From positions 1 to 24,607 of the IMG/VR virus record IMGVR_UViG_3300047274_000348: a stretch of 24,607 nucleotides of DNA, one strand, 5' to 3'. A program made the translations under genes and the position numbers. The stretch is from a virus (Duplodnaviria; Caudoviricetes). The notes beneath the pieces are model-generated. The model did no database searches and was not told the origin of the DNA. It saw nothing but the letters and a program-made list of their open reading frames with translations. Of the stretch, positions 4,874 through 20,486 are shown piece by piece (within the stretch, counting starts at the first letter, position 1; the number at the start of each line of letters is the position of its first letter).

Positions 4874-7765
4874 GTGGCCTACAGAGCAGAAATCGAAATC
4901 GGCGTAAGGGGTACGGAAAAACTCCGCGATCTTCGAAACACTATCGAAGACCTAAGCAAGCGTATAAATAGACTAGACGACCTAGCCAATACTTTTAACG
5001 CACCAATACAAAGCGTAGCTAATTACACAAAAGCCGTAAATCAAGCTGCTGCTGCACTAAATAAAGCTGAACTTGGCTCACGAGACGAAACCGATGCTAT
5101 AAAAGCCCTTGCTCAAGCAATGGGCGAAGAAAACACAGTACGTCAACGCCGATTGTTTTTACTAGATACAGAGATAAAAAAACGTCAGGGATTACTACGG
5201 GCTGCTCCAGTGTCCGGCACCGTTGAACTAGGCCCCGGTGGCCCAGGTTTCAGCGGTGGTTTTTCTGCTAGTCAACGCCAGCAAGCAAACGAACAAGCTA
5301 TTTTACGCATCCGTCAAGAAGAAAATAAAATACGCAGGCAAAGTCTAGATATTGCTTCAAGAGAAGAACTATTTGAACTGCGTTTAGGGAAAATTTTAGA
5401 TAGAAATGCAAATGCTCTCAAACAACGAGAAAAAACAAGAGAAGCTACAAGTAACGCCATTATTGGTGGCGCCTTTCCGCTGCTTTTCGGTCAAGGCTTA
5501 GGCGCGTCTATCGGCGGCGGTGCTGGTGGTTTTGCCGGCGGTATGGCCGGCGGCCAATTTGGTTTTGGTTTGTCCCTTGTCGGCACAGCCCTAGGAAGTG
5601 TATTTGACCAAGCTATACAGTCTGCTAAAGACTTTTCTGTTTCTTTACGTGAAGGCGGCGACGCCGCAGGCTATCTCGAACAACAACTTGGGTATCTAGA
5701 CCCATCCATCAAAAAACAAATCCAGAATCTACAAGCATCCGGGCAAACAGCTAAGGCCGCGGAAGTAGCATTTAATGAGCTTGCTAGGCAAGTAGGGGTC
5801 GAAAATGCCACAGCGTTTAAGCAACTGGGCGATAACACATTTGTATTTACAACAGGTTTCCAACGACTCGTAACAACAATTATTGCTGGCGCGGCCCGTA
5901 TTGATGATGCACTGAAACCCATACGCGACCAGCGTTTGCTCCAAGGTCTAATCAGTGCGGTACCTGGAGTAAATGCTGCTACTTTAGTAAGGGGAGCAAC
6001 AGACTTTATCAGCGGTTTCGGTCAACAACCGGGCGCAGGCAACGATGCACAAACAAGCGCCGCAAGAGAAAGAACAGCCGAACTTACTAAAAGTAACGAT
6101 TTACTGCGCTTGCAGGTCCAACTAACTGCAGTAAACGCAAAAACAGACCTGGATCGCTACGTTACACTACAAAGACAAACAGCCCAAAAAGAATACGAAA
6201 ACGAACTAACAAAAATTAGTCTTCAGCTGAAAAAAGGCGAAGTAGACCTGGCGCAGAATGAACAACTCATACGAGCAGCAAACTTAAACCTGTCGATAAA
6301 ATTAGGTGAAATAGAACGCACCCGCACACAAGAATTGACCCGGCGAGCAGAAGAAGCACGCCAAGCCGCCGAACAAGCTGCCCAAAAAGAAATTCAAGCA
6401 AGAATTCAAATACTAAATTTACAGAGCCAAGTCCTTTCTGTGTTCGTCGAGCAAACACAAGCTCAGATTGCACGGGAAACTTTCCTTAAAGGCGAACTAG
6501 GCGGCCTCGAAGCCCAGCTCCAAGCACAAGACAAAATTGCTTTTGCGAAGGAGACAGCCCTGGAACGCGATCGCCAAGCTGCTTTGCTGGGCACAAAAAA
6601 TGCAGAAGAACAGAATCTAATCAATGCCGCGTACGCAAGACGTCTCAACCTGCTACAACAACAAAATGACTTGGAAGCAGCCCAGGCTGAACGTCGTAAA
6701 AATAGACTAAAACTCGAAGAGGAGTTAGCGGCTACCCAAAGACAACAAGACATCGAAGATAGTGTTGCATCTGTACGGCAGCAACAGCAAAAAGTATCTT
6801 TCGACATTGCTGGATTTACCAGCCCTGCCGATTTACTGCAACAAGAAAAACAGCTATTCGAACAACGCATACGCGCAAGAGAAACTCTTTTGCCACTAGA
6901 AAGAGAAATAACAAAACTTACCAAAGACATAAATTCTAGTTCTTTGGACGCAAACGCATTAAAAGCCAAACAAAATGACTTGGCTGCGCAGCAAGCAAAG
7001 CTCGTCCTTATGCAGCAAGAGCTTGGGCTGCTGGACCAACTGGAGCACCGGCAACTCCGCCTGCAACAATTCTTCGAGCGCTACGGCCAACTCATCCAAA
7101 CAGCCAGCGGAGAGATCGCCAACGCCGTTACTTTCGGCGTAGCAGAGATGGTACGCGGCACCAAGACAGCCGAACAGGTATTTGCCGACTTCCTAAACGC
7201 GATCGGCAACGCCCTGATCAGCGCTGCCCAACAGATGATCGCCACCTACATCGCAATCGGCATCGCCAAAATGTTCGCCGGCCTCAGCGGAGGTGGTAGC
7301 GCTAACACCGGCACATCTGTAGGCGGTTTGCCTGGCTCCAGTCTCCAAGGCGGTTTTGCTAATCCACTTGTTGGTCAGTATTCAACGCCACTTGCATTTG
7401 CCGACGGCGGCTTCGTTACAGGTCCTACCAACGCCGTGGTTGGCGAAGGCGGTGAATCCGAATACATCATCCCCGCCAGCAAGATGCGCTCCGCCATGAG
7501 CCGGTATGCTGCTGGCGCACGCGGCTCTGCAGTCATCCCGGCTGGCGACGACACCAGCAGCGGCGGCACCGCCACAATGGCACCAGCCGCCATCGACGTG
7601 CGCTACACCGTGGAACGCATCAACTCCGTTGATTACGTCACCGCCGACCAGTTCCGCGCTGGCATGGCCCAAGCCGCCCAGCAAGGCGCCACGCAAGGCG
7701 AACAGCGCACCCTTCGCCGCCTGCAGCAGTCCCGCGCCACTCGTAGCCGCCTCGGCATGAACTGA
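4874..7765 (+). CDS. Tail tape measure protein
   Basis: 963 aa, Ala/Gln/Leu-rich coiled coil, Gly-rich hydrophobic stretch (IIGGAFPLLFGQG), C-terminal FADGGFVTGPT..VGEGGESEYIIP motif. Confidence 0.92.
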   Translation: MAYRAEIEIGVRGTEKLRDLRNTIEDLSKRINRLDDLANTFNAPIQSVANYTKAVNQAAAALNKAELGSRDETDAIKALAQAMGEENTVRQRRLFLLDTEIKKRQGLLRAAPVSGTVELGPGGPGFSGGFSASQRQQANEQAILRIRQEENKIRRQSLDIASREELFELRLGKILDRNANALKQREKTREATSNAIIGGAFPLLFGQGLGASIGGGAGGFAGGMAGGQFGFGLSLVGTALGSVFDQAIQSAKDFSVSLREGGDAAGYLEQQLGYLDPSIKKQIQNLQASGQTAKAAEVAFNELARQVGVENATAFKQLGDNTFVFTTGFQRLVTTIIAGAARIDDALKPIRDQRLLQGLISAVPGVNAATLVRGATDFISGFGQQPGAGNDAQTSAARERTAELTKSNDLLRLQVQLTAVNAKTDLDRYVTLQRQTAQKEYENELTKISLQLKKGEVDLAQNEQLIRAANLNLSIKLGEIERTRTQELTRRAEEARQAAEQAAQKEIQARIQILNLQSQVLSVFVEQTQAQIARETFLKGELGGLEAQLQAQDKIAFAKETALERDRQAALLGTKNAEEQNLINAAYARRLNLLQQQNDLEAAQAERRKNRLKLEEELAATQRQQDIEDSVASVRQQQQKVSFDIAGFTSPADLLQQEKQLFEQRIRARETLLPLEREITKLTKDINSSSLDANALKAKQNDLAAQQAKLVLMQQELGLLDQLEHRQLRLQQFFERYGQLIQTASGEIANAVTFGVAEMVRGTKTAEQVFADFLNAIGNALISAAQQMIATYIAIGIAKMFAGLSGGGSANTGTSVGGLPGSSLQGGFANPLVGQYSTPLAFADGGFVTGPTNAVVGEGGESEYIIPASKMRSAMSRYAAGARGSAVIPAGDDTSSGGTATMAPAAIDVRYTVERINSVDYVTADQFRAGMAQAAQQGATQGEQRTLRRLQQSRATRSRLGMN

Positions 7766-8633: not shown

Positions 8634-11600
8634 TCCAAGAGCTGGGCTGCACCGAACAAGAATATCTGGAGTTCAAGCAACGCATCGACTGGCTCAGCCG
8701 CGAACGTCCGGCGGAGTACGCCCATATTCCAGACATTGAGAACACAGGCGCGGAAATCATTGCCATTATCTCACTGGTTCTCGGCGTCGTTTCCCAAGGC
8801 CTTTCGCTGCTACTGGCGCCCAAGCCGCCATCGGCGCCCAAAGGGATTGAGAACCGGCAGCTCGACAGCATCGTCGGCCGCGATCGCTTCGCCCCAACAT
8901 ACGGCTTTCAGGCCAGCCAAGAACTAAGCCGCTACGGCGAAACGATTCCCATTGTCTTCACCAGGCAAAAATACGTCCAGCTCCCTCCTAGCCGCAGCGA
9001 CTTCTCCTACGTCGGTGGCATCATGGTCGCCCCCAAGCTGGTGTGGAGCCGCATGTACTCCCACGGCAGCTACCAGTCCGTCGACCTGGTCTTTCTGCTG
9101 GGACAGTCTCCTGTATCCAGAGGCCCATACGACACAGAAGCAGCCCGCAACGAAGACCGCGCTGGTATTTACATCGGCCAAGCCCCTCTTGATGCCCTCC
9201 AAGAATCCGACTTCCGGTGGTATTACTATTCCGGCGGTGAGCCAGTACCAAATAGCTCTGACTATCGACCAGCAACATTTGAGGGCAACAAAAATACAAC
9301 CGGGCAAAGCAGGCTTCTGGGACTCCATCGCCGCTATGGAGATTTCTGGATAGGCGAAGGCGAGCGCGAAAACGCATTTAGAAACCACACGTTTAGCGGC
9401 CTGGAAAGCACAGGGTTTAGCCATGCTTATTCCTTGACTAACCGCGCCGTTTTTGGCGTGTACAACGGCTTGCCGAACGGCACCCCTTACCGCCTTAACT
9501 GGGAAATCGTGCCCTATCCCGGCGCCTCCTCAGAACAGGCCGGTCAAACCCCAGTTGCCAAGCGCTTCCAGATCGCCGGCAACCCCAAAATGGCTGGCGT
9601 GGGACGTAACTATGCTCGCCAGTTCGGAATCGTCGAGCACATAAGAAACGGTCAGGTGACAACTGCACCAGGAGATCGAAGCCAAGGCTTAAAAGTAGAC
9701 ACGCAAGTAGGCGATCAAATCACGATCATCTACAACGAGGGGCGCGTCAGGGACGAGCTTTACTACGACAACAACAACCCCAACATTGTTGCAAACAAAA
9801 ACCGCAACACAGGCGATGGTTTTTTGTATGCCAACCCCGACGTTAATGCCGTGGACAACCGGCAGGTGCGCGACGCCATCCAAGCCGAACACGAACAGCA
9901 AGATGACTTACTAAAGATCGGCACCAAATGGATGATCGGTAACTGTATTTTTCAGGTTACCGCCAGAAATCCAGCCAATACAATATACGATCGCAGCGAC
10001 TTACAGCCTCGCACTGTTACTTTGGTGTGCAAAGAAGTCTTCGATGGGACAGTCGGGAAGGTCGGCGTGTGTCACCGTGGCTTCGTCAACACCGAAACCA
10101 ATCTCCCAGAAGGGCCAGACGGGGCAATCTATGACATCGGCCAAGCCTGGTTCCCAATCTGCAAAGCCGACATCGCATCGTTCCAAAATAGCCGTAGCTG
10201 TAACGTCACTGAAATAGGCATCAAAAGCAATGTCTGGAACAAACTAAACGGCATCTGCAATTTCAAATCAGTTCCCAACGTAACAAAACTACGGGATTAC
10301 GACGTTCAGAACATTGCACTAACCGCTGGAACAAACCAGTCATACATCCAGCGAGCCTCGTTCTTTGACGTCTACGTCAGGCCTGCCAACCAGTCATATG
10401 CTTTTAATCAGGGCTGGGAGAAACTAAATGACCATCCCTTTGCGGTGGTTGGATCAGCCCCGCAAGATCAGTTCAACTTTATCCGCATCGCCCACGGATT
10501 CGGGCAGTACGAGTTCAGACTGCGTCCTGTCACTTCAGGTGAAATCAATCAGATACGCAACGCCGACGGTTCCTACACAAAAGCAACCATCAACGGCATA
10601 ACCGTGGAAGGCCCTTGCTACCGACTCTATGTAGAAGGCGCTGTTCCTTATGCTGAAGGTCAGTACATTTCGCAAACAAAAACAACAAACTACGGGCTGT
10701 TTACGCTGTACATGATGGCAAAGCCCGCCAGCGTAAAAGAGCTGGCACTGGCGCCGGAAATGATCAGCAATCCCGTGTATCAAGGAGGGGCCTCAACATA
10801 CACCCCTCCCCCGTCGCGTGTCCGATTCCTCAAGGCAATAGCCTCAGATGCGTTGGACATAAACGCAAACGGATTTCGTATCAGCAACGGTATCGCTAAA
10901 GCCATCGACAAAGATCCCGATCCACGAGGAGCAGAACACAACACTTTCCATGGCACTCCAGTTATCACATACTTCCCCTTCAACGTTGGCGGCATTTACA
11001 CATTTTCCGAATCCGATAGCACCGCATTTCGCTACGACCAGGGTGGTCGTGTTGTGCGACTAAAGATGAAGCTGCGCTTGTACACCACGCCAGAAAACAT
11101 AACAGCTACAAACTTCCTGAGTCACTGGTGGGAAATTGTAGAGCCAGACAACATCGAAATTTTGCAGTTGACCGGCAGTTGGACTGGCAACGAAATCTTT
11201 GTCATTCGCAGCGTTCTGCGAAATCCCGCCATCACCATTGACTACTACTTCCAAATTGTCGCGCCAGTTCCCATCAGTTCTCCGCCCACTCTCGGTGGCG
11301 AAAGAACATTTGAAGGCAATGTAGGCATTGCCGAGGTATCACACTACGCAAATTTGATTTCGCGCAGTTGTGACAATGGTCCAGAGCATGAGATTGTCTA
11401 TATCAACGAAACCATTGCTCCTCGCAGCAACAGCCCAGCCACATACACGGGCTGCGCCATGGCGGGGCTCAAGCTCCGCAGCACAGCAGAACTGAACCAA
11501 CTGGAACAGCTTCACATTTACGCAAAGAACGGCATCAGCGTTACCAATCTGCGCCTGACCAGCAACGGCAACATTGTTGAAACCACTAGCTCTTCCAACA

Positions 11601-12602
11601 TTTTCACTGACCTCGCCTACTACTTACTCACCAACATCCAAACGGGAGCTGGCGAGCTGATCAGCTCCGACCTCATCGACAAGGCTCAGTTTGCCCGCAC
11701 GGCAATGTTCCTGGAGGCCAACTACTTGTATTACGACGACGTGATCGTCGAACCGCAAAACCTGCGCGAATTCCTGGCACGCATCAGCACTTCGCTGCTT
11801 TGCAACCTTGTCATGCGCGGCGGCAAGTTTTCAATCGAACCTGCCCTCCCCATCGACACCACACGCAACTACACGATCGGGCATCTTCACCGAAGGCAAC
11901 ATCATCGAGGACTCCTTCCAACTGGAATACGTCCAAGCTCAAGAGCGCCTGCCCATTCGTGCCATGGTGCGCTACCGCACCGAACTGCCCAACCGCTTCC
12001 CGCAAGAGCAAACAGCAGTCGTGTACTACACAGACCAGCCCAACGGCCCACTGGAGGAGTTCAACTTCACCCACATCACCAGCCGCTACCACGCCGAACT
12101 GTTCGCCAAGTACGCCCTGAGCGCCCGCCGTCACCGAACCCATGTGGTCAGCTTCCAGACGCTGCCCTACGGCCTTGGCCTAGCGCCCGGCGACTTCATC
12201 CGCGTGGTGACGCAAGCCAGCTACGTCCAGCCTGGTGCATCCGGCATCATCAAAGACAACGGCGCCATCATCACGCCAGCTCAGCTCACCAACGGCCAAA
12301 GCGTGCAGGTGTACTACTGGGACCGCAACGACAACGAGGTCAACGAAGACACGCTCGCCATCAGCATCGTTGACGGCCAGCCCAAAGCCAACAAACTGTT
12401 CGGCTCAATCTTTGCCATCAAAGACACAACAACGCGCTCGCTTGTCTACATGGTCGACTCCATCGACCTCGACGAAGAAGGCCTGGCACGCATCAGCGCC
12501 AGCTACTTCCCCATCGACGAAAACGGCTACAGCGTGGTCGCTAATGAACTCAAGCCTTCTTACAATGGATTCACGGTGGTAAGCGACCTGGCACCTGACT
12601 GA
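8513..12602 (+). CDS. Large tail tip / host-specificity protein (gpJ-like), frame broken at about 11880
   Basis: YGETIPIVF, PKLVWSRM, SNIFTDLAYYLLT motifs. Protein-like sequence in the 8513 frame stops at ...NYTI (11878) and resumes in the 11808 frame at GIFTEGNIIEDSF (11880) to 12602. Start (TTG 8513) is uncertain. Confidence 0.8.
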
Positions 12603-14273: not shown

Positions 14274-16715
14274 TTGGCAGACCTCAAAATTACAGAGCTG
14301 CAGGCCCTCGCTGGTGCCAACCTCGCAGCCACGGACGAACTGGCCATCGCGGACATCAGCGCCAGCGAAACCAAGAAAATCACGGTCAGCGACCTCATCG
14401 CATACGGCGCCGACCTCATCTCGAACGCCGAGATCCCTAGCGCCAAGATCAGCTTTGCCGCTGGATCCATTGTCGAGGCATCGCTTGCCACTGGCTCTGT
14501 CACTGCCACCAAGATTGGCGCCGACGCTGTAACGGCCGCCAAACTCGGAGACCAAAGCACCTGCATCGTTGCCGCCAGCAAAGCTGCCCTCGATGCAGTC
14601 ACTGGCGACTTCATCGGTCAACTCGGCTTCACCACCGACACCGTCAAGATCTACCTTTGGCAGAACAGCACTTGGAACTCGGTTAAAGCTGCTGGCTCGA
14701 TCAACACGATCACGGCTGACACCAGCGGCATCGTCAACATCACCGTCAGCACCAGCGGCGACACCGCCACTGTTGGCACCAGCCTCGACAACACAGGCGC
14801 CGCCGGCCAATTCCTCGCAGGCCCGACTGGCTCTGCTGGAGCCGTCAGCTACCGCACCATCGCTGGCGCTGATCTCCCCACGGCCACCACGAGCGCGAAA
14901 GGCGGCGTCATCATCAATGGCGGCGGCCTGACAATGAGTGGCGACACCGCCGTCATCAACAACACCGTCACCCCTGTCACCGACTCCCTCCGCAAACTCA
15001 CCTACAACGCACAAGGCCTGATCACCGCCAGCACTGCTGTTGCTGGCTCCGATTTGCCTGTTGCCACCAGCGCCCTTACCGGCGCCGTTCGCCCCGGCAC
15101 TGGCCTCAGCGTTGACGGCAGCGGCGTCCTCAACCACTCCAACAGCGTTGCAGGCACCACGCAAAACGGCATCACCTTCGACGCCCAAGGCCACATCACC
15201 AATGCCACGGCGCTAGTTGCAGGCGACATTCCAGACCTTCCGGCCACCAAACTGACCAGCGGTTCGCTCGATATTGCCCGCATCACAAACAACACCGTCA
15301 CTGGCGCCAAGCTGGCAAATTACTCCATCACAAAAATCGGGGAAACGCAGCCCACGGCCGACATGATCGGCCAGTTCTTCTTCAATCCCCTCACCCGCGA
15401 CCTTTTCCTCTGGGACGGTAACGTCTTCCAGCCCATCGGCATCTCGGTGGGCGAAATCATCTTCGCTGGCACCTTCGACGCCTCCGCTGGAAGCGGCACT
15501 GGCCTGATCGCTACCGTCACCGCAGAAGGTACTGCCATCGGCCTGGTCGTCGGCCAGCCGCTACCTGCCGCCGCCACAGCCAACAACCGCTACTACTTGG
15601 TTGTTTCCGAGGCTGGCACGATCACCAGCGGCAACGCCCCGAATGTTGCCCTGGCACCGCCTGACATCGTCCTGTCGAACGGCAACGAGTGGACTGAGGT
15701 GGACGTTAGCCAGACGATCACCAGCGTCACCGCCAACCAAGTTAGCTACACGCCCAGCGGCGGCCTTGCTGCTGTCAACGTCCAGGCCGCCCTCGACGAG
15801 CTAGAAACAGAAAAGCTGGCCTTGGCCGGTGGCACGATGACCGGCGAGCTGCTGATCGGCAGCGCCGGCAGCTTTGCGTTTGAGGGCTCCACTGCCAACG
15901 CCTACGAAACCTACCTGACCGCCGCCGACCCGACCGCCGACCGGACTATCACCTTCCCGGACCAAAGCGGCAATGTCATCGTTAGCGGCAACGCCAGCAT
16001 CGTCAACGCGGACATCAACGCCAGCGCCGCCATCGCCTTCAGCAAGCTGGCCGCACTGACCAGCGCCAACATCCTCGTCGGCAACAGCAGCAACGTGGCC
16101 ACTTCCGTCGCCATGAGCGGCGATGTAACGATCAGCAACACTGGGGCAACCACCGTCGTTAGCGGCAGCACCAGCGTCGCCGGCAAGCTGCAACTCACCG
16201 ACAGCACCAGCAGCACCAGCACAACGACAGCCGCCACACCCAACGCGGTCAAGACCGCCTACGACCTGGCCAACGCAGCGCTGCCCAAGAGCGGTGGCAC
16301 GATGACCGGAGCGATCACGTTCGCTGCAGGACAAACGATCAGCGGCTATGCAGCACTGGCCACGGCGCAGTCGTTTACCGCCGCCCAGCGTGGCACCATC
16401 AGCGCCCTTGGCGCAGTCACGGCTGGAACCACCACGTTGGACTTCGCCACTGCCAACAACTTCAGCCTGAGCCTCCCCGCTGGCGGCACTGTGACACTGG
16501 CCACGCCCAGTAATATCACAGCCGGCCAAAGTGGCTGTATCGTCATCACACAGAACAGTGGCACTGCAGCTCTTGTGGCCTACTCCACTGCCTGGAAATG
16601 GAAAGGCGGCGCACCCTCAATGAGCACAACGCTCAGTAGCGTCAACGTCATCGCCTACTTTGTGGAATCCGCTAGCCGGATCACCGCCACCCTCCTCGAC
16701 AACACCGTCAACTAA
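14274..16715 (+). CDS. Tail fibre protein
   Basis: MADLKITEL start; Thr/Ala/Gly-rich; repeated DLPxAT and GGTMTG motifs; phage fibre repeat KLQLTDSTSSTSTTTAATPNAVKTAYDLAN. Confidence 0.85.
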   Translation: MADLKITELQALAGANLAATDELAIADISASETKKITVSDLIAYGADLISNAEIPSAKISFAAGSIVEASLATGSVTATKIGADAVTAAKLGDQSTCIVAASKAALDAVTGDFIGQLGFTTDTVKIYLWQNSTWNSVKAAGSINTITADTSGIVNITVSTSGDTATVGTSLDNTGAAGQFLAGPTGSAGAVSYRTIAGADLPTATTSAKGGVIINGGGLTMSGDTAVINNTVTPVTDSLRKLTYNAQGLITASTAVAGSDLPVATSALTGAVRPGTGLSVDGSGVLNHSNSVAGTTQNGITFDAQGHITNATALVAGDIPDLPATKLTSGSLDIARITNNTVTGAKLANYSITKIGETQPTADMIGQFFFNPLTRDLFLWDGNVFQPIGISVGEIIFAGTFDASAGSGTGLIATVTAEGTAIGLVVGQPLPAAATANNRYYLVVSEAGTITSGNAPNVALAPPDIVLSNGNEWTEVDVSQTITSVTANQVSYTPSGGLAAVNVQAALDELETEKLALAGGTMTGELLIGSAGSFAFEGSTANAYETYLTAADPTADRTITFPDQSGNVIVSGNASIVNADINASAAIAFSKLAALTSANILVGNSSNVATSVAMSGDVTISNTGATTVVSGSTSVAGKLQLTDSTSSTSTTTAATPNAVKTAYDLANAALPKSGGTMTGAITFAAGQTISGYAALATAQSFTAAQRGTISALGAVTAGTTTLDFATANNFSLSLPAGGTVTLATPSNITAGQSGCIVITQNSGTAALVAYSTAWKWKGGAPSMSTTLSSVNVIAYFVESASRITATLLDNTVN

Positions 16716-19189
16716 TGCTGGTACCAGGCTCGTCCACCCCGCTCCTGGCGCACAGCGCCGCTGCCGCTGCAACGGGCATCTCCAGGAGCCTGCGCTTCAA
16801 TAGTAGTGACAGTGCCTACTGTTCCAGAGTTCCCGCCTCTGCTGGCAACCGCAAGACCTGGACCTGGGCGGGGTGGGTGAAGCGGAGTGGGCTGGGTGGC
16901 CTCACCGATACATTGATGGATGCACGCACTGGGTCTAATGAGAGCCCCTTGTGTTTTAACGAGTCAGTAGAAAATACGCTTTCGCTGTACGAATACAACA
17001 GCTCATACATTTGGCAGCTAAGGACAACGCAGGTTTTTCGTGATCCTTCATCTTGGTATCACATCGTTGCGTCGGTTGACACAACGCAAGCCACGGCAGC
17101 CAACAGAGTAAGGTTATACGTAAACGGAACGCAGATCACCGCTTTTGCTGTAGCCAATTACCCAAGTCAAAATCACGATACTTTTTGGAACACAACAAAT
17201 CCACATGTTATTGGTCAAAAAGCTCTCCTTTCTGGGAGTTTTTATGACGGCTACCTCGCCGACATCTACTTCATCGACGGCCAAGCGCTGACCCCCAGCA
17301 GCTTCACCGAAACCGACGCCACCACCGGCCAGCTCATCCCGAAGGCGTATACCGGCAGCTACGGCACCAACGGCTGGCATCTGGAGTTCGCGGACAACAG
17401 CAGCAACACCGCGACCACACTAGGGAAGGACACTAGTGGCAACGGCAATAACTGGACGCCGAACAACCTGTCGGTCACCGCTGGTGCAGGAAACGACTCC
17501 CTCGTAGACGTTCCCACTAATGGGGCCCAGACAGATACGGGCGTTGGGGGTGAGGTGAGGGGCAATTATGCGACGCTGAATCCGCTGGAGAGTGCCAACA
17601 CGCTCTCAAACGGAAACCTTGATGTCACGTCTGGATCTGCAAGCTGGAAGATTTCGGCATCGACTATCTACGCGCAAACCGGGAAATGGTACTGCGAGTT
17701 TACCTTGAACGCCGTGCAGGGTTATCCGCAGATTGGTGTTTACGCTGCAGGATCTACTTTTGCAACGTCAGGTCTGATGGGAACATCATCGACTGGCTAC
17801 GCATATAACTCCTTCAACGGAAACAAAATTAACAACAACTCTAGCTCTGCTTACGGCAACTCTTGGACAACTGGCGACACAATCGGTATTGCATACGACC
17901 TCGACAATGGTGCGCTCTATTTTTCTAAAAACGGCACTTGGCAAAACTCAGGCGTGCCAACCAGCGGCGCATCAAAAACAGGCGCGGCGTTTTCGCTCCC
18001 TGCCGGTATCTTCTACACCGTAGCGATCAGTGCTTATGGGTCTGACGCTGGATCGTTCAACTTCGGCCAACGCCCCTTCGCCTACACGGCCCCCAGCGGC
18101 TTCAAGGCGCTCTGCACGGCAAACCTGCCCGCCCCATTAGTCACGAAGCCTAATACGGTCTTCGATACGGTTCTTTATACAGGCACAGGTAGCACGCAGA
18201 CGATCAGCAGCCTCCAGTTCAACCCAGATTTTCTGTGGATTAAAAACCGCGACACTGCCGGCTACAACCATCATTTAACTGATGTCGTTCGTGGCGTGAC
18301 TCAGCGACTCAGGTCAAACACCACTGGCGCTGAACTAACGACCACAGATCAAGTTACGGGCTACACATCAACAGGTTTCACGCTTGGCGCTGACAGTGCT
18401 GGCCCTGGTGACCTTGAATGTAACCAAAGCTCAAAGACATACGTCGCCTGGGCCTGGGACGCCGGAAGCTCCACCGACACCAACAACACAGCAGGCTCCA
18501 TCACTTCTCAGGTGAGGGCTAATACCAGTGCGGGGTTCTCCGTGCTCACCTATAGCGGTGCCAATGGTGGCACAGTCGGTCATGGTTTAGGAGTTGCACC
18601 GTCACTTGTCATCGTTAAATGCCGAAGCAATGCGGATGGGTGGGTGACGTACCACAAGGATCTTGGTCCTACTAATACTCTGCAGCTTCAATCTACCAAC
18701 GCAGTTCAAACGTCAGACACAACTGCATTCAATTCAACAGCACCATCTTCAACGCTTGTAACGCTCGGAAATAGCGGAAGAACTTGTGAATCTGGCCGCA
18801 CCTACGTCGCCTACTGCTTCGCCCCAGTAGTCGGGTACTCTAGCTTTGGCAGCTACACCGGCAACGGCAGCTCGGATGGCCCCTTTGTGTATACCGGGTT
18901 TAGGCCGAGGTGGGTGATGATCAAACATTACTCTGGAACAATTAGCGACCAAGTTAATGCATTGTGGATGATTGTGGATTCAGCGAGAAATACATACAAC
19001 GTTGTTAATTTAAGACTGCACGCAAATAGTTCGGCACAGGAAACTAATCTTGGAGAAACCATAATGGATTTTACTAGCAACGGATTCAAACTTCGTTGGA
19101 CGCCTTCCGACGTGGCAAATGCAAATGGCGGTAACTACATCTATGCCGCCTTTGCTGAGGCGCCCTTCAACTACGCCCGCGCCCGCTGA
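16715..19189 (+). CDS. Putative receptor-binding protein: LamG/ConA-like domain, SPRY-like domain and three C-terminal repeats
   Basis: SLRFNS..WTWAGWVKRS..WYHIV..RVRLYVNG (LamG-like); GKWYCEF..GDTIGIAYDLDNG.LYFSKNG (SPRY-like); three units beginning YTGTG/YSGAN/YTGNG and ending YVAWAW/YVAYCF/YIYAAF. Confidence 0.8.
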   Translation: MLVPGSSTPLLAHSAAAAATGISRSLRFNSSDSAYCSRVPASAGNRKTWTWAGWVKRSGLGGLTDTLMDARTGSNESPLCFNESVENTLSLYEYNSSYIWQLRTTQVFRDPSSWYHIVASVDTTQATAANRVRLYVNGTQITAFAVANYPSQNHDTFWNTTNPHVIGQKALLSGSFYDGYLADIYFIDGQALTPSSFTETDATTGQLIPKAYTGSYGTNGWHLEFADNSSNTATTLGKDTSGNGNNWTPNNLSVTAGAGNDSLVDVPTNGAQTDTGVGGEVRGNYATLNPLESANTLSNGNLDVTSGSASWKISASTIYAQTGKWYCEFTLNAVQGYPQIGVYAAGSTFATSGLMGTSSTGYAYNSFNGNKINNNSSSAYGNSWTTGDTIGIAYDLDNGALYFSKNGTWQNSGVPTSGASKTGAAFSLPAGIFYTVAISAYGSDAGSFNFGQRPFAYTAPSGFKALCTANLPAPLVTKPNTVFDTVLYTGTGSTQTISSLQFNPDFLWIKNRDTAGYNHHLTDVVRGVTQRLRSNTTGAELTTTDQVTGYTSTGFTLGADSAGPGDLECNQSSKTYVAWAWDAGSSTDTNNTAGSITSQVRANTSAGFSVLTYSGANGGTVGHGLGVAPSLVIVKCRSNADGWVTYHKDLGPTNTLQLQSTNAVQTSDTTAFNSTAPSSTLVTLGNSGRTCESGRTYVAYCFAPVVGYSSFGSYTGNGSSDGPFVYTGFRPRWVMIKHYSGTISDQVNALWMIVDSARNTYNVVNLRLHANSSAQETNLGETIMDFTSNGFKLRWTPSDVANANGGNYIYAAFAEAPFNYARAR

Positions 19190-19212
19190 CCACACTAGAG
19201 AACAAGACTTTT

Positions 19213-19446
19213 GTGGCAGTGAATACGATGCCTGACCTCTCCCCCGCCGCGCAGGCGGTGCTGGATGCTTCTTCAAACGCCCCGGTTGGGGATGGATGGA
19301 ACGCCGACCGACTAGCCATCGCCGCCGCCCTGCGAGCTGCTGCTCAATTCAACCCTGGCCCGTTCGTGCCTGAGTTGTTTGACGAGGGCTGGAAAGCTGC
19401 AATGACTGAACTGGAATATATAGCCGACCAGCTTGAAGCCCAGTAG
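19213..19446 (+). CDS. Hypothetical protein (LSPAAQAVLDA...IAAALRAAA type)
   Basis: Helical 72-77 aa ORF with an alternative ATG at 19228; its TAG stop lies within the 19444 site. Confidence 0.7.
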   Translation: MAVNTMPDLSPAAQAVLDASSNAPVGDGWNADRLAIAAALRAAAQFNPGPFVPELFDEGWKAAMTELEYIADQLEAQ

Positions 19447-19460
19447 TCATTCCAACTTCC

Positions 19461-19652
19461 ATGTCTAACGAAATTACCCTTCTTGATACCATCACCGAAG
19501 TTATCAGTAACGGTGACGACGCCCACCACTTCAGGGAAACTGCTCTAGAAGCTGTTTGCTACGCCGCTTCATGGCTGCGAAAGGAAGGTTTTTGGCAGGC
19601 AGCCGATGTGCTAATCACTGAAATCAACGGCGATTACCGTGATCTTGAGTAG
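19461..19652 (+). CDS. Hypothetical protein (63 aa)
   Basis: ATG 2 nt after the 19444 site; TAG stop within the 19650 site; AASWLRKEG..AADVL helical pattern. Confidence 0.65.
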   Translation: MSNEITLLDTITEVISNGDDAHHFRETALEAVCYAASWLRKEGFWQAADVLITEINGDYRDLE

Positions 19653-19661
19653 TCGCTTCCT

Positions 19662-19880
19662 CTACACGCCCTGCAGCTTGTCCACACTTTCCGAAAAGCG
19701 CCACATCGCGTCGGCATAACTGGCACCGATAGGCTCTGGTTGTGGCTCTGGTGTTTTGTATCCAGCTTGGTCGAGCACGGCACGGGCAAAGTCGAGCACG
19801 CCCTGATCGCTGAAGCAGATGTAATTGGTGAAGCAGTTTGCGTGCATGTACATAATTTCTTGGATCTCTTCGTCGGTCAT
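19662..19880 (-). CDS. Hypothetical protein (72 aa)
   Basis: MTDEEIQEIM...VLDFARAVL; start reassigned to the ATG at 19880; its stop is the CTA arm of the 19650 site. Confidence 0.6.
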   Translation of the reverse strand: MTDEEIQEIMYMHANCFTNYICFSDQGVLDFARAVLDQAGYKTPEPQPEPIGASYADAMWRFSESVDKLQGV

Positions 19881-19955
19881 GGTGCCGTGATTGCGTGGGA
19901 GGCTAGAGTGACAGAAGCCTTCCAGCGGTGTCAACTACTAGACGCCTGAACCACT

Positions 19956-20486
19956 GTGTTTCTTCTCGACGGCAAACCCCTGGCTCTGGACGTGCCTTTT
20001 AAGCACGCTGGCATTCAGTACCCCGCCAACTGGCTCAGGCTGAGCAGCCCGCAGGAGCGCAAGGCGATTGGCATCACGGAGGTGCCGGATCCTCAGCCAT
20101 ACGATCAGCGCTTCTACTGGGGCTACGACGCCGAGGGCAAACTGATCCCGAAGGACCACACGCAACTGGTCGAGCAGTGGATGCAGCAGACACGCACCAC
20201 CGCCAACACGCTGCTGGCCCCTACGGACTGGATCATCATCCGCGAGGCCGATAACGGCAAAACAGCCGACCCCGTCTTACGGACCTGGCGCGAAGAAATC
20301 CGCCTTGCCTCAGGCAGCAAAAACTACGAAATTCGCAACACCGCCGATACCGAGGCACTCGCGGCCTACATCACCAGCCCGGATTACTCCGCTTGGCCAT
20401 CTGATCCCTACGCACCGCAGCCCGCTGCCCCCCAAGGCGACGACACCGTGCTGTTTAGCAACAACAGCACCAGCAGCGGATTCTGA
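19956..20486 (+). CDS. Putative tail fibre assembly chaperone
   Basis: QYPANWL, YDQRFYW, LLAPTDWIIIRE...WREEIR motifs typical of fibre-associated chaperones; downstream of the fibre genes. Confidence 0.65.
   Translation: MFLLDGKPLALDVPFKHAGIQYPANWLRLSSPQERKAIGITEVPDPQPYDQRFYWGYDAEGKLIPKDHTQLVEQWMQQTRTTANTLLAPTDWIIIREADNGKTADPVLRTWREEIRLASGSKNYEIRNTADTEALAAYITSPDYSAWPSDPYAPQPAAPQGDDTVLFSNNSTSSGF

Follow-up and report, generated by a model that had tools for sequence, protein, structure and literature searches.

Does a short inverted motif that recurs within a single phage gene mark the places where that gene is cut and rejoined, or has it been carried along in DNA that is exchanged by other means? 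The question is raised by a stretch of 24,607 nucleotides (nt) from a tailed virus of the Caudoviricetes (IMG/VR record IMGVR_UViG_3300047274_000348, positions 1 to 24,607; referred to here, at its full length, as the window), in which the 15-base pair (bp) motif TAG-N9-CTA punctuates a virion fibre-like gene encoding 824 amino acids (aa) (open reading frame, ORF, 16715..19189, + strand). The initial annotation regarded the motif as the candidate site of a diversification system, whereby a recombinase would act between cognate sites of related genomes to exchange parts of the host-recognition protein in an ordered manner. The analysis described here finds that the gene is indeed a mosaic of exchangeable parts, while a site-specific exchange mechanism is not supported. 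With a probability of roughly 0.6, the six sites within the gene are an inherited passenger in the linkers of a mosaic gene whose modules swap by homologous recombination, and are not the target of a recombinase or nuclease.

The excess of TAG-N9-CTA in the gene is real. On both strands of the 24,607 nt, the exact motif occurs seven times, always between 16804 and 19664 and nowhere else on either strand, in agreement with the earlier scan by eye. The whole-window expectation is 1.67, and seven sites were reached in 1 of 100 dinucleotide shuffles; when the spacer is varied from k = 0 to 20, k = 9 gives the seven sites and every other k gives 0 to 4. The k = 9 excess also survives codon-preserving controls. 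Six sites fall within the gene, where synonymous-codon shuffling yields a mean of 0.50 and a maximum of 4 (six or more in 0 of 5000), and permuting the codons of the gene likewise reached six in 0 of 5000 trials. Allowing for 64 inverted triplets and 21 spacers, a best p-value as small arose in 1 of 400 shuffles, compared with 24, 62 and 72 of 400 for three other long genes of the window. Among all 4096 triplet pairs and 25 spacers (102,400 combinations) TAG-N9-CTA ranks first (p 1.2e-5; runner-up 1.1e-4), an extremeness that was matched in 3 of 600 shuffles. It is important to emphasize that the window comes from a survey of some 250,000 windows, and a gene-level, family-wise chance of about 1 in 1000 or less is therefore expected many times over. 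One-mismatch copies, previously counted as part of the signal, are at chance level across the window (59 matches at no more than one mismatch, 52.1 expected).

The product of the gene matches Pfam DUF7483 (5.4e-110) and SPRY (1e-12) as well as phrog_19943 (2e-196), and the Pfam and PDB profiles divide it into an N-terminal LamG-like beta-sandwich (residues ~25-224), a SPRY domain (324-452, or ~288-452 in its wider extent) and a DUF7483 region (478-817). An AlphaFold model (mean predicted local distance difference test score, pLDDT, 80.6; predicted template modelling score, pTM, 0.83) places strands at residues 25-224, 288-449 and 483-817, with low confidence at 225-287. Site S1 (16804..16818, TAGTGACAGTGCCTA; peptide SSDSAY, with the first T at codon position 3) separates the first strand of the N-terminal sandwich from the second. 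S2 (17421..17435, TAGGGAAGGACACTA; LGKDTS, T at codon position 2), whose arms reach 6 bp in the window, and S3 (17505..17519, TAGACGTTCCCACTA; VDVPTN, T at codon position 2) are both in the low-confidence inter-domain stretch, and S4 (18138..18152, TAGTCACGAAGCCTA; LVTKPN, T at codon position 2) is at the SPRY/DUF7483 junction, between the last strand of the one and the first strand of the other. S5 (18828-18842) and S6 (18841-18855) overlap by 2 nt, have one CTAG in common and together encode VVGYSSFGSY. The proposal that the sites sit at domain edges holds for S1 to S4 and fails for S5 and S6, which (residues 705-714) are in strands inside DUF7483. Similarly, the placement of all sites in the receptor gene is correct for six of them and incorrect for the seventh (19650..19664), which is outside the fibre gene and is simply a pair of convergent stop codons separated by 9 nt: its TAG terminates a + strand ORF (19461-19652), and its CTA is the TAG stop, read on the reverse strand, of an ORF at 19662-19934.

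The six in-gene sites are read in two codon phases, with the T at position 2 in four of them (xTA Gxx ... xCT Axx) and at position 3 in two. Outward complementarity beyond the 3-bp arms amounts to 2, 3, 0, 2, 0, 0 and 1 bp for the seven sites in order; taking the arms as 4 bp would shorten the spacer from 9 to 7 nt. The site contexts listed reveal no flanking consensus common to them. A hairpin role was considered and set aside, since, when folded as DNA, S2 alone pairs through its arms better than shuffles do (z -3.6) and the other five of the six stretches do no better than shuffles. Two direct-repeat likenesses, of S2 to a box at 19188 (18 of 22 letters) and of S5 to the seventh site (14 of 17 letters), are by hand estimate about what chance would give in 3.6 kb. 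The arms were also said to be built from codons that this phage avoids. Relative to the backbone genes this stands (fractions per amino acid: CTA 0.04, TTA 0.01, GTA 0.06, AGT 0.04, ACT 0.12), and it is weakened once two AT-richer tail genes are counted.

The setting of the sites becomes apparent when the gene is compared with its homologues. A first set (set A) comprises 80 IMG/VR loci, with homologues 42-70% identical, and the site counts cover 73 homologues. Six blocks have a third-position identity to these 73 of 0.6-0.83, and the five intervening modules one of 0.2-0.35; amino-acid identity is 0.77 in the blocks and 0.42 in the modules. Where the amino acid is the same, the codon agrees as well at 65% of positions in the blocks, for which chance would give 43%, and at 39% of those in the variable parts, for which it would give 35%; blocks exceed variable parts in codon sameness in 67 of 68 homologues. 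The blocks are thus linkers conserved at synonymous positions, and all six in-gene sites are inside them. A rare codon is kept at 31 of 372 conserved block columns, only 4 of which are accounted for by the arms, and at particular block columns different rare codons are each ~90-97% conserved.

Block 1 (16775..16890, + strand, as are all of the blocks and modules) holds S1 and has a summed metagenome depth of 300-680, which falls to 0-7 in the module that follows. Block 2 (17225..17585) covers the end of the LamG-like domain and the inter-domain stretch, with S2 and S3; block 3 (18035..18185) holds S4, block 4 (18455..18530) has no site, and block 5 (18785..18935) holds S5 and S6. Block 6 (19145..19209) comprises the end of the gene and a post-stop box, CCACACTAGAGAACAAGACT, in which 14 conserved letters are followed by a base that varies among relatives and is A (the exact site) in 4 of the 15 listed. 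Between the blocks lie V1 (16895..17254, residues 61-180), in which median pairwise nucleotide identity is 0.48 and some pairs reach 0.94-1.00; V2 (17585..18064, residues 291-450), the SPRY core; V3 (18155..18454, residues 481-580); V4 (18530..18799, residues 606-695); and V5 (18920..19144, residues 736-810). The low-confidence inter-domain residues 225-287 (17387-17575), with pLDDT below 50 at 227-236 and 250-258, are nevertheless encoded by DNA that ranks among the best conserved in the gene; across four lake metagenomes, summed contig depth peaks (1000-2000) at 17492-17521, a segment that holds S3. G-rich direct repeats ending in GGGTGA (mostly W-V) occur at 16866-16880, 17539-17553, 18633-18647 and 18903-18917; two of these copies are at the transitions from conserved DNA to V1 and V5, and one is 20-30 nt ahead of V2.

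Among lake phages whose backbones are unrelated, each of the five variable modules assorts independently of the others. Identity matrices of different modules are uncorrelated (Spearman -0.08 to 0.12), and in 13 of 990 gene pairs one module is at least 90% identical and another at most 62%. Single modules may be 92-100% identical between genes whose other modules are at ~50%: L061 and L068, for example, are 100% identical in V1 and V5 and ~50% identical in V2-V4. The V3 of the window is 92% identical at the nucleotide level to that of one locus only (L001), with the remaining modules of this pair at ~45-51%, and the other V modules of the window are no more than 57% identical to any locus. In the four lake metagenomes, summed contig depth is 300-700 on blocks and 0-30 on modules, and, in the parts of the stretch with contig cover, contigs join the same blocks across alternative versions of V1, V2, V4 and V5. 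One complete relative, the lambda-like G002, shares none of the window's head or tail genes at E<=1e-3, and yet both have the fibre gene, a 90-aa reverse-strand ORF, a 176-aa ORF and the endolysin. The part of the initial annotation that proposed ordered swapping of host-recognition gene parts between related genomes is therefore borne out, the modules being in linkage equilibrium.

How, then, are the sites distributed among the relatives? At the same alignment columns, and with the spacer included, S1 recurs in 34, S2 in 21, S3 in 31, S4 in 18, S5 in 15 and S6 in 11 of the 73 homologues, and it is because of this recurrence that the pooled homologue count at k = 9 is 162 when other k give 6-47. 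The six columns have 130 realised sites with 8.8 expected. At the other positions where the peptide would permit a site there is no excess in set A (19 realised, 33.4 expected), nor in set B (77 genes found with a cyanophage SS120-1 homologue as query; 45 and 52.1) or set C (142 ORF pieces of 76 genes, query a pelagiphage HTVC121P homologue; 63 and 58.1). The expectation that the motif is kept at synonymous positions fails, as homologues with the same peptides often use other codons; for S2, 0 of 42 genes of set B with the same peptide have the site. Among the genes found with the HTVC121P query (L167-L246), TAG-N8-CTA was also seen 119 times, compared with 2-76 at other spacers, which probably reflects one conserved place.

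The site-bearing, or A-type, linker alleles are close to one another, with ~8-17% third-position difference from the majority. In the site-less relatives, GC-richer codons specify the same peptides, with differences at almost all synonymous positions. Descent would explain the recurrence of the sites, since the A-type alleles are mutually close and the alternatives are recoded. A low GC origin of the A-type alleles was also tried as the cause of the excess, and a hand estimate with AT-rich codons lifted the expectation only to ~0.4. Within the A-type class, departures from the majority letter are found at 12.0% in arms, 4.8% in spacers and 9.3% in flanks, and losses of one arm are common: S2 has both arms in 15 alleles, TAG only in 8 and neither in 3, and S6 has both in 11 and CTA only in 12. 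Ranked among control triplet pairs, both-arm retention stands at 0.19, 0.62, 0.15, 0.23, 0.62 and 0.55 for S1 to S6, and purifying selection on the arms is, by these sequence comparisons, not detectable. Each site has a frequency of 25-44% across 48 full-length genes, and all six are present only in the window and L003. After xCT at S2 (17432-17437) and at S5/S6 (18839-18844), the serine codon is AGT/AGC in some alleles and TCT/TCG in others whose DNA is otherwise identical, and at S4 AAT (Asn) alternates with TCC/TCG (Ser); two-base codon switches of this type are the cause of most of the arm losses.

Beyond the gene itself, the pattern differs from one relative to the next. All 7 sites of G002 are in the fibre locus, as are 5 of the 6 of G003 (one of them 5 nt past the gene end); within the gene there are 3 of the 9 sites of G004, 1 of the 2 of G001 and 0 of 1 in G005, and 5 of the 9 in G004 are outside the fibre locus. 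Upstream flanks of the relatives have no excess at k = 9 (19 sites; 2-43 at other k). Downstream flanks do (27, with 4-20 at other k), and the sites there proved to be repeated copies of a few conserved places, including an HNH gene and the post-stop box. A box in an upstream gene was examined as a possible kept site and was judged not to be maintained, because it reads CAG..CTA in 5 of 10 loci and TAG..CTA in 4.

If the motif were the point of exchange, the ends of exchanged segments should meet there. Instead, exchange end points scatter through the linkers without converging on the sites. Shared module segments have 33 distinct free ends, of which 28 are inside blocks and 8 are within 10 nt of a site (22% expected, p 0.44); 8 end points are in block 4, which has no site, those of block 2 are spread over 17286-17534, and the lake-contig joints listed are 19-150 nt away from sites. 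The mapping of mosaic break points to the sites, on which the site-directed proposal depends, is thus contradicted. Linkage disequilibrium was also tried as a test for hotspots and discarded; r2 is ~0.07 within 12-20 nt everywhere, which saturation alone could produce. With regard to enzymes, the earlier statement that the window lacks a recombinase is upheld, in that no recombinase or integrase family was matched in 25 window ORFs with PHROGs or in 9 with Pfam. Neither was a tyrosine or serine recombinase found to co-occur with the sites in relatives: the 123 ORFs of the complete relatives G002 (7 sites) and G005 (0 sites) gave no match to Phage_integrase or Resolvase. Both do encode HNH and PD-(D/E)XK nucleases, together with RusA or VRR-NUC, and the two do not differ in their nuclease families.

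The explanation preferred here is that ordinary homologous recombination, acting anywhere within the conserved linkers, would reassort the five modules among lake phages. The PD-(D/E)XK nucleases and the RusA or VRR-NUC junction resolvase of the relatives may be the machinery, and host RecA-type functions might also serve. The six sites would stem from one ancestral set of AT-richer, A-type linker alleles that spread recently; their recurrence in relatives would reflect common descent rather than selection, and their coincidence in that ancestor would have been without function.

A number of observations weigh against this explanation. Exchange by homologous recombination is deduced as likely from sequence patterns, and break-point resolution within near-identical linkers is ~10-30 nt. 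Some end points do touch sites (17520, 18151, 18838 and 18841), many contigs end or branch at 17519-17523, right after S3, and a 454-nt indel cassette downstream of the gene (19210..19663) ends in the right arms of the site at 19650 and of the 'site' at 19196. Pairs of single-nucleotide polymorphisms that span a site have an r2 of 0.28, compared with 0.08 for other pairs at 6-12 nt, and S1, S3 and S4 keep both arms more than most control pairs do. Outward extension of the arms exceeds that at random positions (sum 8, p 0.0135), and the passenger reading accounts neither for the extension past 3 bp in three in-gene sites nor for the size of the coincidence itself. In the conserved blocks alone, with block-specific codon usage, six sites stand against 0.31 expected (nominal p 9.4e-7; equalled in 0 of 700 shuffles over the 102,400 combinations of triplet pair and spacer); of 16 peptide positions that permit a site, 6 of 8 are realised in blocks and 0 of 8 outside; and the top-ranked triplet pair, TAG/CTA, happens also to be an inverted repeat. 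A coincidence of six sites is uncomfortable for chance.

Alternatively, TAG-N9-CTA could be the recognition site of a trans-acting nuclease or recombinase, of phage or host, that breaks or exchanges linker DNA, the spacer serving as an address for in-register swaps. Such an enzyme would account for a strong excess restricted to linkers, for the inverted symmetry with some arm extension, for spacers that are the least variable part of the site alleles, for the way the sites bracket groups of modules (S1-V1-S2, S3-V2-S4, S4-V3/V4-S5, S6-V5-post-stop box), for the several end points and contig branch points that adjoin S3, S4 and S5/S6, and for the ends of the 454-nt cassette. Were it true that an enzyme reads the motif, this would be a new kind of targeted diversification. 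It is nonetheless an unlikely reading. Purifying selection on the arms is not detectable; the sites are polymorphic, often with one arm missing; V3 and V4 are exchanged via a linker that lacks a site, and end points do not concentrate at sites; and no excess is seen at other positions, in deeper homologues or in upstream flanks, with that in downstream flanks made up of repeats of a few conserved places, one in an HNH gene. Moreover, G002 and G005 lack a tyrosine or serine recombinase and have the same nuclease families with 7 sites or none, and six specified bp provide little specificity, as the sites of G004 outside its fibre locus illustrate. A slightly less probable variant, and a doubtful one, has the boxes as address tags for a natural, programmed exchange of host-recognition cassettes in a fibre gene common to many lake phages, with an enzyme reading the 3-bp arms and the conserved 9-nt spacer keeping the register. 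The more specific proposal of the initial annotation, a tyrosine-recombinase-like core that recombines only with its cognate, does not fit arms of 3 bp that are placed inside linkers and change more than the spacers do.

Readings that dispense with recombination fare worse. The arms might be pairs of rare codons (xTA, with NCT four codons on) that slow translation at domain boundaries to assist folding of the beta-sandwiches, the palindrome being a by-product. All four xTA codons in blocks are site arms, the xTA codons of the gene are followed by NCT at +4 in 6 of 18 cases (~1.3 expected), the codons are rare in backbone genes, and S1-S4 are at domain edges or in the inter-domain stretch. This would, however, leave unexplained why the next codon starts with G or A, as is needed to make TAG and CTA; the two sites read in the other codon phase have no xTA codon, relatives with the same peptides use common codons (as for S2 in set B), and S5 and S6 are within a domain. 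On balance such pausing is improbable. The least probable of the readings considered, and a very improbable one, would have the sites bound, in the manner of operators, by a dimeric DNA-binding protein (a regulator or a nucleoid protein), recombination playing no part. The half-sites of the 15-bp inverted repeat are spaced by one helical turn and the copies cluster in one locus, as might be expected of an operator; however, these are within a late structural gene and in two codon phases, conservation of the arms is not above background, the contexts listed have no flanking consensus in common, and no candidate binder was found, the small neighbouring ORFs matching no family. The inherited-passenger explanation, with modules exchanged through the linkers, thus remains the preferred one, and the palindrome is perhaps best taken as a caution: it passes codon-preserving shuffles and recurs in relatives, yet bears no trace of selection when the shared ancestry of the linkers is allowed for.

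The closest known system is the alternation of conserved motifs and hypervariable segments in gp37/gp38 of the T-even phages. In gp38, hypervariable segments lie between conserved motifs, and exchanges occur within or near the motifs, as described by Trojet et al. 2011 (PMC3157838), where Tetart et al. 1996 and 1998 are cited. The likenesses are the conserved/hypervariable alternation, the shuffling of segments among phages, and exchanges in or near the conserved parts. The gene described here differs in belonging to an unrelated protein family (LamG-like/SPRY/DUF7483), in having linkers of 75-360 nt that are conserved synonymously and are common to phages with unrelated head and tail genes, and in that one class of linker alleles carries the statistically unexpected TAG-N9-CTA.

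Tyrosine-recombinase cores (loxP, FRT, att cores, dif) have inverted arms of ~9-13 bp about a spacer of 6-8 bp. The sites resemble them in their inverted arms and in a short spacer that is particular to each site yet kept from one genome to another; they differ in arms of 3 bp (6 at most), a spacer of 9 nt when the arms are read as 3 bp, and unfocused junctions, and no recombinase was found among the scanned window ORFs or in the two complete relatives. Shufflons and fibre invertases (Rci/sfx; Gin, Cin, Pin) invert segments within one genome by means of an adjacent recombinase, and they too place several short sites in the variable part of an adhesin or fibre locus. Unlike those systems, no resolvase or invertase was found among the 123 ORFs of G002 and G005; no invertible alternative segments are among the repeats listed for 16500-20100, where the longest inverted arms are 18 nt at 78%; and no strand-changing joints are among the lake-contig joints listed (68 more are outside the listing). 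Diversity-generating retroelements, which act on receptor-binding proteins of the Mtd type, are similar in providing targeted diversification of a phage receptor-binding gene, and differ in that whole modules are replaced here rather than points changed at adenines. No reverse transcriptase family was matched among the scanned ORFs of the window, G002 and G005, and the repeats listed for 16500-20100 include no template repeat and no direct repeat longer than 22 nt. Proteins with an Mtd_N domain were noted in two of the loci (L084:14293-16004 and L082:3281-3919); in G005 such a protein directly adjoins the fibre gene, and in G002 it is located elsewhere.

The 824-aa gene is a putative host-recognition gene, a role suggested by its annotation, namely its position after a tail-fibre gene, its PHROG matches to tail-fibre and virion proteins, and its lectin-like folds. 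The window is a siphovirus structural module that encodes a major head protein, adaptors, a tail terminator, a tape measure and tail proteins, followed in order by a fibre gene with Phage_fiber_2 repeats, the 824-aa gene, small ORFs and an endolysin. The major head protein (3-914) is 45% identical to that of cyanophage S-2L, and the endolysin has 58% identity with its counterpart in Synechococcus phage S-CBS1. S-2L is known for its 2-aminoadenine DNA; the window contains no base-modification genes. Near-identical DNA is present in freshwater and lake metagenomes, while isolated phages provide no close DNA relatives, with two short matches only. Members of the gene family (LamG-like/SPRY/DUF7483) are found in phages of cyanobacteria, Pelagibacter, Roseobacter and Methylophilales from both fresh and marine waters, and in the literature, consulted mostly at the level of abstracts, neither a mention of DUF7483 nor an account of the mosaic or the motif of this gene was found. 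In the lakes, the family amounts to a common pool of five interchangeable modules, set on codon-conserved linkers and distributed among phages with unrelated heads and tails. It offers a well-delimited case for studying natural reshuffling of host range, and its linkers offer natural joints for the engineering of chimeric fibres. The GC content of the window is 0.45-0.47 in the tape-measure gene (5001-7000) and 0.50-0.54 in the gene of a 1286-aa tail protein (9001-12000), compared with ~0.60 elsewhere, and these low-GC tail genes may likewise contain imported segments.

Downstream of the fibre gene, the 454-nt cassette (+ strand) contains two small ORFs (77 and 63 aa) that belong to no family. 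In contigs of the four lake metagenomes it is swapped for 4-5 letters, with joints from 19207/9 to 19662/8/9, and the 'site' at its left end (19196) is the conserved 14-letter box plus the variable base. The small neighbouring ORFs were considered as candidate enzymes and rejected, having no Pfam or PHROG family and nothing above 0.88 in the atlas. The 90-aa ORF (19662-19934, - strand) and the 176-aa ORF (19956-20486) are 98.9% and 87% identical, respectively, to their G002 counterparts; both match no known family, and both travel with the fibre gene. In two further loci (L008 and L009), the post-stop box directly abuts the reverse-strand ORF.

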